From: a virus
Taxonomy: Duplodnaviria; Heunggongvirae; Uroviricota; Caudoviricetes
Strand: one strand, 5' to 3'
Length of the DNA: 40,820 bases
Virus record (IMG/VR): IMGVR_UViG_2917413769_000008
Coordinates: 1-40,820 of that record
Each line of letters starts with the position of its first letter. Position 1 is the stretch's first letter. The position numbers and the translations under genes are program-made. A model generated the notes under the pieces. That model did not search any database. It saw only the letters and a list, made by a program, of their open reading frames with translations, and was not told where the DNA came from. Shown one piece after another: positions 4,588-16,814 of the stretch.

Positions 4588-4794
4588 TTAGTGATTCAGG
4601 CCGTTGCCGCGTCCGTCAAGAAAAACTTCCACGAGCAAGTCACGGGTATAAGTGCGCTCGATGCCGCGATGCAGATAAAGCCGTCCGCGTAAATTAGCTG
4701 ATGCTGTCCAGGTACCATCTTTGTGTTTGACCAGCATTCCTGGCATGACCGCACCGCGATTAACGGTCTGCGTTCCGTAATGTTGATGAACCAT
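4588..4794 (-). CDS. Hypothetical small protein (68 aa) in the kil/cIII position
   Basis: ATG ORF with E. coli-like codon choice 75 bp upstream of gam; no recognised family. Confidence 0.4.
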   Translation of the reverse strand: MVHQHYGTQTVNRGAVMPGMLVKHKDGTWTASANLRGRLYLHRGIERTYTRDLLVEVFLDGRGNGLNH

Positions 4795-5059: not shown

Positions 5060-5125
5060 GCGATGAATTTATTTAAAACTATAGTTGTTTTGTCGTCAAC
5101 AACAAAAGTTGTTTTGTCGGTTATT
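5060..5125 (-). promoter_or_regulatory. Putative pL promoter with OL operator repeats
   Basis: Minus strand: TTGACG, 17 nt, TTAAAT; GTTGTT / AACAAC inverted half-sites; a ~30-bp block shared with OR (TTGTTGAC..AAAACAAC(C/T)ATAGTTTTAA). Confidence 0.55.
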
Positions 5126-5237: not shown

Positions 5238-5290
5238 GCAAAAGAAAACCCGGGCCGTGAACTGTCCAACTTTCGGGGGGCAGTTCACGG
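5238..5290 (-). terminator. Rho-independent terminator ending the cI-distal operon
   Basis: On the minus strand: CCGTGAACTG...CAGTTCACGG 10-bp stem followed by a T-rich tract (cccgggTTTTCTTTT). Confidence 0.6.
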
Positions 5291-5380
5291 GGGCAGGGTT
5301 TAGATGATTGGTTAAGAAAGGGTAATAGGGAATGAAAAATCGCTTTGCCTAATGCAAGGTGGCGAGCAGTTTCTTAAGCA

Positions 5381-5821
5381 CTAAAGAAAAAAGTACATTG
5401 ATAGCTTATAAAGTCCTGTTCCTGCAGCGATGATTGCTGGAACACCAAGCAATACCGCAAGCTTTGCGTCTGAAATCTTTCTATCGACAGCATCGATGGA
5501 TGGTTTTTTGGCTAGTGACTCTTTTATTGAATCGAGTCGCTCCAGAACAGCGATCATGTTTCTGTCGATAGATTTGACATCTGTCTTGAGCTCATCAACG
5601 TCACGTCGGATGTAGGACACATCAGACTCAAGCTTTGCAACTTTCGATTCAAGCACATTATTACTCCCAGAGCCACCGCTACCACTTGATTGTAGCATAG
5701 GTACATTACCGCCAGACATACCAGCTGATTGAGAAAATGCTGCGGTGTGCAAAGATGATGATCTTGCCGCTTGTTCAAGCTTTTCAGTTAGGTTTGGAGC
5801 TTCGTAATAACCGTGTTTCAT
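5381..5821 (-). CDS. Coiled-coil protein with Gly/Ser-rich N-terminal region and a single C-terminal transmembrane helix (146 aa); rexB-position cargo
   Basis: ATG ORF 8 nt after the upstream gene's stop; C-terminal LAVLLGVPAIIAAGTGLY hydrophobic segment; heptad-like LESKVAKLESDVSYIRRDVDELKTDVKSIDRNMIAVLERLDSIKESL region. Confidence 0.7.
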   Translation of the reverse strand: MKHGYYEAPNLTEKLEQAARSSSLHTAAFSQSAGMSGGNVPMLQSSGSGGSGSNNVLESKVAKLESDVSYIRRDVDELKTDVKSIDRNMIAVLERLDSIKESLAKKPSIDAVDRKISDAKLAVLLGVPAIIAAGTGLYKLSMYFFL

Positions 5822-5829
5822 TGTTAATA

Positions 5830-6099
5830 TTATGACTTATTGGTTTTAGCTCTATCATGCTGATCGCGAATAAAGTCAGCGAGTTTAAGCATTAAATCTT
5901 CCGTCATGCGAATTGTTGCAATGTTGTACTTTACGCTTTCAGTGTCATTACTACCATCAGCGTCCCATTCTGTAACATGCTGAAAGAAAGATATGGAGCC
6001 TAAGCGATCGTCATCTTCCCCAAAAGATGAATATCCAAATGCATCAGCATATGCATCTACACAGTTATTTGATTTTTTAATAAGTTTTTTATCACTCAT
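5830..6099 (-). CDS. Small acidic hypothetical protein (89 aa); rexA-position cargo
   Basis: Internal ATG at 6099 preceded by GGGAAAGG 6 nt upstream; AT-rich, unlike its neighbours; lies directly downstream of cI on the same strand. Confidence 0.65.
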   Translation of the reverse strand: MSDKKLIKKSNNCVDAYADAFGYSSFGEDDDRLGSISFFQHVTEWDADGSNDTESVKYNIATIRMTEDLMLKLADFIRDQHDRAKTNKS

Positions 6100-6179
6100 T
6101 TTTTGCCTTTCCCGTAATGTTATTTTTATAAAGAATTCTTTCAGCGCATTACCCAAAAGCCTCATCAGCACGCAGCTGA

Positions 6180-6869
6180 TTATCCGTGTTTCCTGTACGT
6201 CTGCGGCATGCTCCCAATAACCTTACCGAATATGAATACCCGATTCATCTCGTCTTTCTCGATCGGGTCCCACGGTGAGTAGCTCTTGTTATCAGAGATA
6301 ACCAGCAGCTTATCCTTCATCATTTGCAGGCGCTTTACATGGGCTGTGTCGTCGTACAGAAACGCATAGATGCCATCACCGTCGAAAGATTTAACAGTGA
6401 TATCAACGAACAGCAGGTCACCTGGTTCGATCGTCCCTGACATGCTGTCACCGCGCACGTTAATGATGCGGATATTTTCCGCCTTCCTGCCATCGAACAT
6501 GTGACGAGCATCGTCAAACGAGTACTCAACCGAGCGTAGAACTTCCACAAACTCACGGTTGATGACACCCGGTCCGGCACTGACTTCTATATCAAGAACG
6601 TCAATCTTGAAGTATTTTGAATGGCTGACAGTTGATTGTATTGGTTGCACGGTACTGTCTGACATATTTCCAACGCCAGAAGATAACCATTCTGCGCGCA
6701 CACCCAAAGCGTTTGCGATCTCCACGATTTTAGTTGTTTGGTTAGCTTTCCCTGTTTCGATTTTCTGAATGGCAGCCTGGCTAACCCCGACCATATCCCC
6801 AAGCGCCTTTTGTGTAAGGCCTCGCGCTAATCTGGCTTCTTTAAGTCTTTCTGAGAGTGTTGTTTTCAT
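6180..6869 (-). CDS. cI: Prophage repressor (cI-like): N-terminal HTH plus C-terminal LexA/S24-type autopeptidase domain
   Basis: Start taken as MKTTLSERLKEARLARGLTQKALGDMVGVSQAAIQKIE (HTH); C-terminal GDSM...K motifs of S24 peptidases; divergent from cro. Confidence 0.85.
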   Translation of the reverse strand: MKTTLSERLKEARLARGLTQKALGDMVGVSQAAIQKIETGKANQTTKIVEIANALGVRAEWLSSGVGNMSDSTVQPIQSTVSHSKYFKIDVLDIEVSAGPGVINREFVEVLRSVEYSFDDARHMFDGRKAENIRIINVRGDSMSGTIEPGDLLFVDITVKSFDGDGIYAFLYDDTAHVKRLQMMKDKLLVISDNKSYSPWDPIEKDEMNRVFIFGKVIGSMPQTYRKHG

Positions 6870-6973
6870 AGTCCAAATGTACAACCAAGGTTTTATTCCA
6901 TCAAACGAAAATGGTTGTTGACTAAAAACAACCATAGTTTTAATCTTGATTCAAATTAACCACGGAGGTTGTT
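6870..6973. promoter_or_regulatory. OR operator / divergent pRM-pR promoter region
   Basis: Palindrome GGTTGTTgactaaaAACAACC (6913..6933) and a wider ACAACCA...TGGTTGT repeat; pR TTGACT, 17 nt, TAATCT upstream of cro; a cI -10 (TACATT) only ~6 nt from the cI ATG suggests a leaderless cI mRNA. Confidence 0.6.
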
Positions 6974-7204
6974 ATGAACCCAGCTATCAAAACAGCGATC
7001 AATATCGTTGGTTCACAAAAGAAACTGGGCGCTGCTTGCGAAGTTTCACAGCAGGCCGTCTATAAGTGGCTTCACAACAAAGCAAAGGTATCCCCTGAAC
7101 ATGTCGGCAGCATTGTTACGGCTACTGGTGGAGTAGTGAAGGCATACCAGATTCGCCCGGATCTTCCGAAGTTGTTTCCACACACCGAAAAGAACGCAGC
7201 TTAA
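6974..7204 (+). CDS. cro: Cro-like HTH regulator
   Basis: 76-aa ORF divergent from cI, GGAGG RBS, HTH-like segment (GSQKKLGAACEVSQQAVYKW). Confidence 0.8.
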   Translation: MNPAIKTAINIVGSQKKLGAACEVSQQAVYKWLHNKAKVSPEHVGSIVTATGGVVKAYQIRPDLPKLFPHTEKNAA

Positions 7205-7273: not shown

Positions 7274-7813
7274 ATGCAACCACTTACATACCAACAGACT
7301 AGCGGATTTAGCCCGACTGCGGTGATAAATCGTTCTCAAACAAAACAGGTGCCAGGCCACGAAAAAATCCGTGATGCCGTCCGCGCTTGGTCGGCTGAAG
7401 ATAATCAGGATGTCGTTGCCACACTCATTGTGAATGAGTATCGGGAGCAGGGCGGCGGCACCATCGATTTCCCTGATGATGTCAGCCGTGCACGCCAGAA
7501 GCTGTTCCGCTTCCTCGATAACAAATTCGATTCTGAAAAATACCGAAATAACGTGCGTGAACTGACCCCGGCAATTCTGGCGGTACTACCGCTGGAATAT
7601 CGCGGTTACCTGGTTGAGCAGGATAGCTTCATGGCTAGGTTGGCTGAAATGGAAAAGGAACTCAGTGAGGCAAAACAGGCTGTCATTCTCAACGCACCAC
7701 GCCACCAGAAACTGAAGGAAATTAGTGAAGGTATTGTGTCGATGTTTCGTGTGGACCCAGATCTGGCTGGTCCATTGATGGCGATGGTTACTACCATGCT
7801 GGGGGCGATATGA
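7274..7813 (+). CDS. YdaT-like protein in the cII position
   Basis: 179-aa ORF between cro and O with AGGAG RBS; family assignment from memory only. Confidence 0.5.
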   Translation: MQPLTYQQTSGFSPTAVINRSQTKQVPGHEKIRDAVRAWSAEDNQDVVATLIVNEYREQGGGTIDFPDDVSRARQKLFRFLDNKFDSEKYRNNVRELTPAILAVLPLEYRGYLVEQDSFMARLAEMEKELSEAKQAVILNAPRHQKLKEISEGIVSMFRVDPDLAGPLMAMVTTMLGAI

Positions 7814-9823: not shown

Positions 9824-9974
9824 GGTTGACGATAACTAATATCTGGCGCTATATTCTGTGTGTTGCCGCAAAATCGGCACACGGGATTGGCGTCCCGGAT
9901 AAGGTAATCGCGACTACTACACGCCGCGAGCGTGTTTTTTATTGTCGTAAGCATACGCACATCTGAATTATGGT

Positions 9975-10040
9975 GGGGCGTGTAGGGCCGACTTCGGTCG
10001 GGCCGGTTGATTACCCCGGTTACGCCAACCCTACATGTCT
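9975..10040 (+). other. GC-rich structured element (nested hairpins, UUCG tetraloop) between ren and the antirepressor-like gene
   Basis: GGGCCGACttcgGTCGGGCC hairpin nested inside GTAGGG...CCCTAC; no convincing ORF. Confidence 0.3.
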
Positions 10041-10098
10041 CACCACCAAACTGATTGGCGTCAGCGGTGGTGGTTAACTTGATTTATAGGTAATCATC

Positions 10099-14547: not shown

Positions 14548-14778
14548 AAATGGGGAGGTGGCTGGATGTCTAAAATAAACATTGCTTCCAAGTGTACAAC
14601 TATGCGTTAATGGCTGCGTCGGTTTGAAGAACAGACGATATACGAAGTAGTTTACTAAAGCAGTTCTCATTTCAGGTGTTATTCACTTATTCCTTCTTTG
14701 AGTCTCTCCAATTAAGTACGAAGTCGTTTCTGTTATACAAATCATTTATGCCGAAAGGCTCAAGTTAAGGAATGTAGA

Positions 14779-14994
14779 ATGTCAAATAAAATGACTGGTT
14801 TAGTAAAATGGTTTAACGCTGATAAAGGTTTTGGCTTTATTTCTCCTGTTGATGGTAGTAAAGATGTGTTTGTGCATTTTTCTGCAATTCAGAATGATAA
14901 TTATCGAACCTTATTTGAAGGCCAAAAGGTTACCTTCTCTGTAGAGAGTGGTGCTAAAGGTCCTGCAGCAGCAAATGTCATTATTACTGATTAA
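14779..14994 (+). CDS. cspB: Cold-shock protein (CspA family), inserted between Q and the lysis genes
   Basis: 71 aa with [12 protein letters not shown] (RNP1) and VFVHFSAI (RNP2) motifs; long 5' leader; CspB rather than CspI is from memory. Confidence 0.8.
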
Positions 14995-15192
14995 AATTCA
15001 TAGCTTGTCTGTATACGATAACGAAGAAGGCTGATGCCTGAGTAGAGATGCAGATAGAGTTGTGGGTATTGAATCCCATTTTGTGGTGAAGTGCAGGTTT
15101 GCTGCATGAATAGTTTTACAGTAGAAGCTAACTGCTGGCATAGCAATACAAAGTGCGTAAGTGGGTAACTACCACAAAAAGCACCACAATCT

Positions 15193-15667: not shown

Positions 15668-15883
15668 ATGAAATCAATGGATAAGTTAACAACAGGTGTC
15701 GCCTATGGCACCTCTGCAGGCAGTGCTGGCTACTGGTTTTTACAGTTGCTCGATAAAGTCACGCCATCACAGTGGGCGGCAATAGGTGTGCTGGGTAGTC
15801 TGGTATTTGGCCTGCTGACGTACCTGACAAACCTTTATTTCAAGATTAAAGAAGATAAGCGTAAGGCTGCGAGAGGTGAATAA
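15668..15883 (+). CDS. S: Class II holin (phage 21 S-type pinholin)
   Basis: 71 aa with dual-start MKSM, two TM segments and a charged C-terminus; matches phage 21 S from memory. Confidence 0.9.
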
Positions 15884-16380
15884 TGTCGCCATCATTACGC
15901 AAGGCTGTTGCAGCTGCTATTGGTGGTGGGGCTGTTGCCATAGCGTCTGTGCTCATCACTGGTCCGAGTGGTGACGATGGTCTGGAAGGTGTCAGCTACA
16001 TACCATATAAAGATATCGTTGGCGTATGGACTGTATGTTACGGGCACACCGGAAAAGACATTATGCTCGGTAAAACGTATACCGAAGCAGAATGCAAAGC
16101 CCTCCTGAATAAAGACCTTGCCACTGTCGCCAGACAAATTAACCCGTACATCAAAGTCGATATACCGGAAACAACGCGCGGCGCTCTTTACTCGTTCGTC
16201 TATAACGTGGGCGCAGGCAATTTCAGAACATCTACTCTTCTTCGCAAAATAAACCAGGGCGATATCAAGGGCGCATGTGACCAGCTACGTCGCTGGACAT
16301 ACGCTGGCGGTAAGCAATGGAAAGGCCTGATGACTCGTCGTGAGATTGAGCGTGAGGTCTGTTTGTGGGGGCAGCAATGA
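15883..16380 (+). CDS. R: SAR endolysin (lysozyme, phage 21 R-type)
   Basis: 165 aa with an N-terminal hydrophobic signal-anchor-release segment; overlaps the holin stop. Confidence 0.9.
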
Positions 16381-16814
16381 GCAGGGTAACCGCGATTATC
16401 TCCGCTCTGGTTATCTGCATCATCGTCTGCCTGTCATGGGCTGTTAATCATTACCGTGATAACGCCATTACCTACAAAGAACAGCGCGATAAAGCCACGT
16501 ACATCATCGCTGATATGCAGAAGCGTCAACGTGATGTAGCAGTACTCGACGCCAGATACACAAAGGAGCTTGCTGATGCTAACGCGACTATCGAAAGTCT
16601 CCGTGCTGATGTTTCTGCTGGTCGTAAGCGCCTGCAAGTCTCCGCCACCTGTGCAAAGTCAACGACCGGAGCCAGCAGCATGGGCGATGGAGAAAGCCCA
16701 AGACTTACAGCAGATGCTGAACTCAATTATTACCGTCTCAGAAGTGGAATCGACAGGATAACCGCGCAGGTTAACTACCTGCAGGAGTACATCAGGACGC
16801 AATGCCTGAAATAA
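16377..16814 (+). CDS. Rz: Rz i-spanin
   Basis: Start [19 protein letters not shown] (TM) overlapping the endolysin stop; coiled-coil periplasmic domain. Confidence 0.85.
16570..16761 (+). CDS. Rz1: Rz1 o-spanin lipoprotein embedded in Rz (+1 frame)
   Basis: 63-aa ORF inside Rz with a lipoprotein signal (LLVVSAC) and a Pro-rich mature part. Confidence 0.8.

Follow-up and report, generated by a model that had tools for sequence, protein, structure and literature searches.

Background

In phage lambda, the slot between the repressor gene cI and the block that contains the leftward operator and promoter (OL/pL) holds two genes, rexA and rexB, the products of which, a soluble protein of 279 amino acids (aa) and a four-helix membrane protein, respectively, are expressed in the lysogen. 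Here we describe a two-gene cassette, denoted A-B, that occupies the corresponding slot of a lambdoid prophage and encodes proteins of unrelated sequence. The cassette was found in a 40,820-nucleotide (nt) sequence of a member of the Caudoviricetes (IMG/VR record IMGVR_UViG_2917413769_000008, positions 1 to 40,820; this entire stretch is hereinafter denoted the window), and we tentatively interpret it as a phage-exclusion module that recurs in unrelated phage backbones.

The slot of lambda is not the only relevant precedent. In mycobacteriophage Butters, the repressor-adjacent gp30 and gp31 reportedly are soluble and membrane proteins which the prophage expresses and which defend against other phages. 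Membrane-associated products of two lengths, made from two in-frame starts, are found in the holins of lambda (S105/S107) and phage 21 (S68/S71) and in the SieB/Esc proteins of P22, where Esc is the short product from within sieB. In P22, the interval from gene 16 to ant/gene 9 contains, downstream of mnt, the genes orf59a and sieA, of which sieA codes for an exclusion protein of the inner membrane that the prophage expresses (PMC4837284, PMC10883804). SieA consists of 162-164 aa and has three predicted transmembrane (TM) segments; the features that characterize it are the motif FxRYPxEAxxFNK, a length of about 160-200 aa and three or four TM segments (PMC10883804). In the Bacillus prophage PBSX, the membrane protein XhlA (PF10779) acts jointly with XhlB, a holin (PMC5589764).

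The cassette and its genomic location

In the window, the repressor gene is followed by the co-directional genes A and B, an intrinsic terminator and OL/pL, that is, in the lambda order, and these elements were recovered at the positions assigned to them in the initial annotation, which had been made from the sequence alone:

6180..6869, minus strand: cI-type repressor, 229 aa, with the Pfam domains HTH_3 (2.9e-13) and Peptidase_S24 (1.5e-18)
6100..6179, minus strand: spacer of 80 nt between the cI stop and the A start; part of the cargo, not of the conserved flank, with sister-phage homology ending at 6179-6181
5830..6099, minus strand: gene A, 89 aa, acidic, soluble; phrog_4231
5381..5821, minus strand: gene B, long form, 146 aa; phrog_3556, 1.9e-54
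5238..5290, minus strand: intrinsic terminator, a hairpin (5255-5290) and a T-tract, which closes the cI-A-B unit
5254..6179: limits of the exchangeable cargo, from blastn comparison with PhiR26_1, Turner and Lambda_4C10
5077-5095 and 5101-5119: OL operators, two 19-bp direct repeats of 89% identity, 24 bp apart
5099-5071, minus strand: pL candidate, TTGACG-17-TTAAAT (-35 at 5099-5094, -10 at 5076-5071)

The likeness to lambda comprises the slot, the gene order, the combination of a soluble and a membrane product and, presumably, transcription in the lysogen together with the repressor. By contrast, the proteins themselves are distinct: as had been proposed, A (soluble) and B (membrane-anchored) show no relationship to RexA and RexB, with no Rex match in the Pfam and PHROG scans; A has 89 aa, and B, rather than being polytopic, crosses the membrane once, is anchored by its C-terminus, contains a coiled coil and has a predicted nested short form.

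The boundaries of the cassette are sharp. Homology between the window and the sister phages stops exactly at position 5253 and resumes at 6179-6181, that is, at the cI stop codon (blastn), and behind closely similar repressors the slot is filled differently:

L002, 3392-3772: slot of PhiR26_1, with a BamE-like lipoprotein; the cI gene is 96.5% identical to that of the window at the nucleotide level
L106, 1003-2419: slot of Lambda_4C10, with the PADLOC candidate system PDC-M11A/B (E 2.9e-133 and 6.8e-52)
L107, 2357-2491: slot of Turner, with no cargo gene but 135 bp of non-homologous DNA
Klebsiella phage: slot with a ParA-like ATPase

Phages 4A7, D2, 1W, 3W and Perceval matched on the same cI segment as Lambda_4C10, the slot contents being read in Lambda_4C10. 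The suggestion that this slot undergoes turnover among related prophages was thus borne out by exact breakpoints and by differing cargo behind near-identical cI genes. The terminator itself bears a trace of the exchange. Its hairpin (5255-5290; -25.3 kcal/mol, z = -3.45; inverted repeat of 13 nt at 92%) is followed by TTTTCTTTT, and the resident terminator of the sister phages has the form CCCGGC..GCCGGG-TTTTCTTTT, half of which is replaced by the cargo hairpin in the window. By its sequence, the terminator at 5238-5290 is a hybrid of the hairpin of the cargo and the T-tract of a sister-type terminator, with the junction at 5253/5254. Judging from these breakpoints, positions 5254-6179 form a mobile cargo of two genes (a "moron") that a lambdoid prophage carries in its lysogeny operon. 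The cassette, of which gene A had originally been described as very AT-rich, is indeed AT-rich, with a GC content of 0.36-0.375 where the flanks have about 0.5. The ribosome-binding site of A, GGAAAGG, which had been called strong, is a moderate one.

The position of both genes for co-transcription with the repressor gene (cI here and mnt in the P22-like phages discussed below), with the terminator closing the unit, is strongly supported by the gene arrangement. No terminator-like site between cI and A was found in the site scan. At the end of A, a promoter-like sequence, ATGATA-18-CATAAT (5829-5858, minus strand), is aimed into B and recalls, by its position, lambda pLIT within rexA; such a site is not above chance, with 2 sites detected in the scan against 4.7 expected. 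The Rfam scan gave no match in or near the cassette.

Distribution of the cassette

The cassette is present in 214 of the 5,426 complete Escherichia coli genomes (about 4%), as two alleles that are invariably annotated as hypothetical: one at 95% identity or higher (50 genomes) and the other at 60-80% (164 genomes; about 79% in the listed examples, with O26:H11 and O111 strains among them). E. coli strain C4 carries a 99.9%-identical cassette, preceded there by another cI allele, in a prophage that adjoins icd and has an integrase 98% identical to that of the window, and in strain 2016C-3878, a 97.8%-identical region encompassing cI, A and B belongs to a prophage beside tRNA-Arg.

The only one of 50,697 phage records with A-B is Salmonella phage UPF_BP1. 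In this phage and in the P22-like IMG/VR loci L027-L034, L036 and L041-L047, A-B directly follows mnt in the interval that separates gene 16 from ant/gene 9, which is the place of orf59a and sieA in P22. Between the lambdoid and the P22-like copies, nucleotide homology does not extend beyond A and some or all of B, so that, on this comparison, the coding pair itself is the moving unit. Other relatives of A-B are opposite-strand inserts that adjoin tape-measure or tail genes, and pairs of the B family are found behind at least five other repressor types; altogether, relatives were detected in Salmonella, Klebsiella, Citrobacter, Pantoea, Serratia, Xenorhabdus and Photorhabdus. The scan of genomes by species, made with a narrower B alignment, yielded few close relatives and many weak coiled-coil matches, and only the full-length ones were used.

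Some loci depart from the two-gene layout. A third small gene follows B in L027 (5745-5981), L034 (5736-6110) and L048 (5474-5854), the third genes being a TM-rich open reading frame (ORF) of 78 aa, a 124-aa ORF with TM and coiled-coil segments, or a BamE-like lipoprotein, so some versions of the module may consist of three genes. In Pantoea sp. alder81 (L065, 2977-3279), an orphan B-type gene of 100 aa, which may be a remnant, lies in an apparently non-phage chromosomal context with no partner upstream. Salmonella phage 29485 (L004, 3920-4297) encodes a distant B-like protein (residues 56-137, 33% identity), whose gene lies just upstream of the tape-measure cluster and is co-directional with it, a context unlike the lysogeny slots.

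Proteins A and B

The initial annotation recognized no family for either protein, and this assessment stands: searches of Pfam, NCBIfam, PADLOC and the sequences in the Protein Data Bank (PDB) gave nothing significant, and the only matches are to PHROG families listed with "unknown function". Protein A, which is acidic as described (pI 4.8, net charge -5), matches phrog_4231 over its full length (profile positions 1-87 of 88, E 1.7e-48). Its family is very small: when 1.84 billion representative proteins were searched with the profile, 8 clusters reached E <= 1e-10; two WD40-repeat proteins that also matched the profile were judged spurious. The best match of A among the PDB sequences is not significant (E 0.4). 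The predicted structure, of moderate confidence (mean predicted local distance difference test score, pLDDT, 78.7), has three long beta-strands and, C-terminal to them, a helix, and this model hints at an interlocked dimer and gives no functional clue.

Protein B matches positions 128-265 of the 276 in the phrog_3556 profile, and its homologs form 109 clusters across Enterobacterales. The architecture that had been read from its sequence, namely, a Gly/Ser-rich N-terminus, a coiled-coil core and one C-terminal hydrophobic helix, agrees with the AlphaFold2 (AF2) model, in which the N-terminus is of low confidence and helices span residues 55-104 and 109-145, and with heptad and hydropathy analysis:

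5504..5659, minus strand: coiled coil of B (residues 55-106); 14 of the 15 heptad a/d positions are hydrophobic, and the AF2 helix spans 55-104
5408..5467, minus strand: C-terminal TM helix of B (residues 119-138); the maximum of the Kyte-Doolittle 19-residue window is 1.8, at residue 119

An 8-residue tail follows the TM helix, and K139 is invariant in alignment A1. That B spans the membrane once and combines a coiled coil with a membrane helix at its C-terminus is strongly supported by comparison. The lack of a signal peptide and the prevalence of positive charges on the N-terminal side of the helix suggest that B is tail-anchored, with its bulk probably in the cytoplasm. Profile matches of B to trimeric coiled coils among the PDB sequences, P22 gp26 (E 0.0019) and Lpp, are weak and were treated as compositional; similarly, the matches to FlaC, Lpp, DUF1515 and XhlA in the Pfam, NCBIfam and PADLOC scans are generic coiled-coil noise, none of them above the threshold.

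Comparison with three diverged alleles gives dN/dS values of 0.08-0.12 for A and, for B, 0.11 over residues 56-146 and 0.27-0.53 over residues 1-55. These comparisons strongly support purifying selection on both genes (dN/dS about 0.1), which makes them real rather than chance ORFs.

Pairing and exchange of partners

Directly downstream of A, a B-family protein is detectable by BLAST in 30 of the 43 viral A loci. The other 13 encode a protein of the same design, with a variable N-terminus, a low-complexity linker, a coiled coil and a C-terminal membrane helix, as judged by inspection of representative loci, in some of which BLAST similarity to B is undetectable. The distance between A and the B-type gene is from -14 to +12 nt in 19 of the 20 tabulated representative pairs, the exception being L075, with 97 nt. 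Thus, across the compared loci, there is strong support for A and B being always adjacent and tightly spaced.

The reverse association is looser. Proteins of the B family are preceded by members of at least three unrelated families, phrog_4231 (that of A), phrog_5893 and phrog_4293, the partners other than A being encountered in Citrobacter, Salmonella, Klebsiella, Pantoea, Xenorhabdus and Photorhabdus. The phrog_5893 partner is a protein of about 136-153 aa that is unrelated to A, and the phrog_4293 partner, seen in one case, is a 109-aa CxxC..CxxC protein. That the N-terminal peptide of B changes with the partner is strongly supported by these alignments. Closely related A-type partners accompany the B peptide "YYExPxLxEKLExAAxSSSL...MLQSSG", and in L051 and L054, where the phrog_5893 partners are 74% identical, the B proteins share the peptide "MVRAIDINT.QPIEE" although their coiled-coil and membrane ends differ. 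Because the peptide tracks the partner, we infer that it is the putative docking site of the partner.

A conserved internal start in gene B

The ATG of B, which is located 8 nt past the A stop codon, lacks a Shine-Dalgarno motif, whereas a strong motif is present inside the gene, ahead of codon 56:

5664..5668, minus strand: internal Shine-Dalgarno-like GGGAG, 7 nt upstream of an in-frame GTG, codon 56 of B
5381..5656, minus strand: predicted short form of B, 91 aa, comprising only the coiled coil and the TM helix; start GTG at 5656-5654

The first observation, together with the short distance to A, suggests that synthesis of the long form is translationally coupled to that of A. The second recurs throughout the family. 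At the junction of the linker and the coiled coil, nearly all B-type proteins have Met (GTG is the codon in the window), and in all 17 phrog_3556-type genes the internal ATG or GTG is preceded by GGAGG, GGGAG or GGGGG, with a spacing of exactly 7 nt in 13 of them, the two codons in between being variable. Codon -4 always specifies Gly, and it is GGA or GGG in 15 of the 17 genes compared with 21 of the 62 other Gly codons of the linkers (Fisher p 7e-5, a value that overstates independence, the sequences being related). The window retains GGGAG even though the encoded residues are Gly-Ser rather than Gly-Gly. Furthermore, three genes of the sequence-unrelated B type phrog_5820 contain an internal ATG at the same junction, with GAGG or AGGAG 6-11 nt upstream, so that a Shine-Dalgarno motif and an internal ATG or GTG are found in all 20 of the B-type genes examined (17 of the phrog_3556 type and 3 of phrog_5820). 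Many homologs in the databases are called as proteins of 90-93 aa that begin at the internal Met. Gene B is accordingly predicted to yield two products, a long one of 146 aa and a short one of 91 aa that lacks the N-terminal peptide.

Comparison with other known systems

Homologous A-B pairs are found at the sieA place of P22-like phages, and the window copy itself resides in the cI slot. The possibility that B is a form of SieA was rejected: B has one predicted membrane helix (approximately residues 119-138), the motif FxRYPxEAxxFNK is absent, and the bulk of the protein is probably cytoplasmic.

With the dual-start holins and SieB/Esc, B shares, to judge from sequence comparison, the two in-frame starts and the predicted long and short membrane-associated products. 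The starts of the holins, however, are 2-3 codons apart, compared with 55 in B, the long form of which gains the whole predicted docking peptide, and no similarity of B to SieB or holin families above the threshold was detected in the Pfam scan. Holin and antiholin genes belong to lysis cassettes, whereas A-B resides in the immunity operon. The lysis cassette of the window (15668-16814, plus strand) comprises a phage-21-type holin with the dual start MKSMDK, an endolysin of 165 aa, hydrophobic at the N-terminus, and an Rz-type spanin; with this cassette complete, B was rejected as a holin of the prophage itself.

XhlA resembles B in being short, with a coiled coil at the N-terminus and a membrane helix at the C-terminus. 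The XhlA profile is approached by B variants whose membrane end is of another type (the best, P0104, at 25.2 bits, E 1.9e-5, against a threshold of 34.7), and the window B, at 12.1 bits and E 0.23, also below the Pfam gathering threshold of 34.7, was rejected as a member of that family. B further differs from XhlA in that it occupies a lysogeny slot, with no adjacent holin or endolysin and with a soluble partner.

The likeness to Butters gp30/gp31 lies in the concept of a soluble and a membrane protein produced by a prophage; the sequences and hosts are unrelated, and direct comparison is limited to the negative PADLOC searches. By analogy, then, A-B would belong to the kind of system represented by prophage cassettes for exclusion that combine a soluble and a membrane protein, without homology to RexAB, SieA, XhlA or the systems in PADLOC. 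A literature search found no paper on the A-B pair, although it may have been tested before.

Possible functions of the cassette

We propose that A-B is a prophage-expressed phage-exclusion or abortive-infection module, as first suggested from the window sequence, and would assign to this interpretation a probability of roughly 0.45. It is favored because the pair is placed as a lysogeny gene or moron in several unrelated backbones, because its slot shows turnover of cargo that includes a candidate defense system, because the slots of both rexAB and sieA are occupied by such pairs, and because partners are swapped around a membrane-anchored protein that apparently oligomerizes. In the lysogen, the long and short forms of B would co-assemble through the coiled coil at the cytoplasmic face of the inner membrane, and the N-terminal peptide of the long form would dock soluble A, probably a dimer, which would serve as the specificity or control subunit. 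A superinfecting phage might then trigger or titrate A, whereupon the B assembly would either damage the membrane much as RexB or a holin does, so that the infection is aborted, or block genome entry at the membrane. We rate the abortive, membrane-damaging role somewhat above the entry block because the bulk of B is predicted to be cytoplasmic and because some B variants approach XhlA, a helper of a holin.

Several observations weigh against this interpretation. None of the 5,027 models in PADLOC-DB v2.0.0 matches A; the same database gives only coiled-coil noise for B (best E 0.0054), no match for the other partner types and only weak coiled-coil matches for the other types of B (best E 1.4e-4). 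PDC-M11 is itself only a candidate system, which makes the argument from a defense hotspot indirect, and repressor-adjacent slots hold non-defense cargo as well. The structural model of B is poor overall (pLDDT 62.7), the topology of this protein was drawn from its charge distribution, and the genes that provide the evidence of the internal start are related and hence non-independent.

Three other functions deserve consideration. The pair could be an addiction or prophage-stabilization device similar to toxin-antitoxin systems, with B, especially its short form, as a membrane toxin, A as the antidote, and any anti-phage effect being secondary. The layout is that of type II systems, with small, adjacent, coupled genes and an 8-nt gap: a small acidic protein is encoded upstream of a membrane protein, at a distance of 8 nt or with overlap, and the long form, which starts without a Shine-Dalgarno motif, would depend on translation of A. 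The movement of the pair as a unit among unrelated phage backbones and the partner-specific N-termini of B, which suggest direct binding, fit as well. Yet no toxin or antitoxin domain or family was recognized in A or B in the Pfam and NCBIfam scans, A is devoid of the DNA-binding domain that is typical of type II antitoxins, three unrelated partner families are better suited to sensors than to dedicated antidotes, and, if A works via the N-terminal peptide, the short form would escape its control, so we consider this function improbable. The partner swapping and slot turnover, which are typical of genes that evolve in conflict, also tell against the view that A-B is lysogenic-conversion cargo without a connection to phages, such as a membrane-tethered scaffold that alters the physiology of the host (stress tolerance, or tethering of ribosomes or proteins in the manner of ElaB/YqjD). 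This view accommodates the predicted tail-anchored coiled-coil architecture, the lack of a match to any defense family and the enrichment in certain lineages (the 79% allele accounts for 164 of the 214 E. coli genomes, with O26:H11 and O111 among the examples listed). Nevertheless, neither ElaB/YqjD nor any other host family shows sequence similarity to the pair, which belongs to phage or prophage DNA wherever the context was examined, save for the partner-less L065 in the Pantoea chromosome, and we regard such a role as unlikely.

Very unlikely, in our estimate, is a role in the life cycle of the phage itself, whereby A-B would tune the switch between lysogeny and lysis or the timing of lysis at the membrane. 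The location in the immunity operon would be natural for such a regulator; RexA and RexB of lambda are reported, in a bioRxiv paper, to assist the transition to lytic growth (10.1101/2021.04.19.439022); and the architecture of B, with its nested start, is holin/antiholin-like, some variants approaching the holin helper XhlA (PMC5589764). However, the slot is empty in Turner and contains unrelated cargo in sisters with the same cI, cro and operators, which indicates that A-B is dispensable for the switch; the same pair is found in phages with different repressors and lysis systems; and the window already has a complete lysis cassette (15668-16814).

Returning to the exclusion module, we can envisage, albeit doubtfully, a generalization in which A-B represents a widespread, undescribed class of "plug-and-play" prophage immunity in Enterobacterales, with three products, that fills the rexAB and sieA slots. 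In such a class, a constant tail-anchored coiled-coil effector, in its nested forms, would be combined with an exchangeable soluble sensor of the A type, the phrog_5893 type or the zinc-ribbon type that docks on the matching peptide of the long form.

Other features of the window

The start of cI is most likely at 6869 (229 aa) rather than at 6935, the start of the longest ORF. The latter position is inside the OR palindrome (6911-6935) and overlaps pR, the -35 element of which is at 6918-6923; pR itself is TTGACT-17-TAATCT (6918-6946), so that pR and the OR palindrome overlap within 6911-6946. In the sister phage PhiR26_1, the annotated cI gene is 690 nt long, and RefSeq records carry cI as the 251-aa version. 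On the other side of cI are a YdaS-type cro (6974-7204) and, in the cII position, a YdaT-type gene (7274-7813).

The pL/OL sequence (5071-5119) is a near-duplicate of pR/OR (6911-6946). OL is situated about 115 nt beyond the terminator, and the pL candidate is directed at kil, gam, bet and exo. The segment 4795-5071 of the minus strand, which separates pL from the kil-like gene (4588-4794), contains no N-like ORF; this leader of about 280 nt is untranslated and has no Rfam match.

Elsewhere in the window, on the plus strand, just downstream of the replication genes, the Hfq-binding RNA isrK (9864-9940, 61 bits) and the C4 antisense RNA (9966-10050, 74 bits) were identified at the level of the Rfam gathering thresholds, an arrangement that resembles the Gifsy-1 isrK locus (PMC4825925). 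A full-length match to the cspA thermoregulator 5' untranslated region (156 bits; 14618-15010, plus strand) points to a cold-shock-protein gene within the late region of the prophage.

Implications

Even if A-B is not a defense system, hundreds of "hypothetical" genes would have their annotation corrected by the conserved internal start. If A-B excludes phages, it would be a compact and very modular addition to the defenses encoded by prophages, and the slot behind the repressor gene would be a general defense hotspot with clean exchange boundaries, useful for finding more systems. The design with nested isoforms and a docking peptide matched to the partner may reveal how small membrane effectors stay silent until infection.

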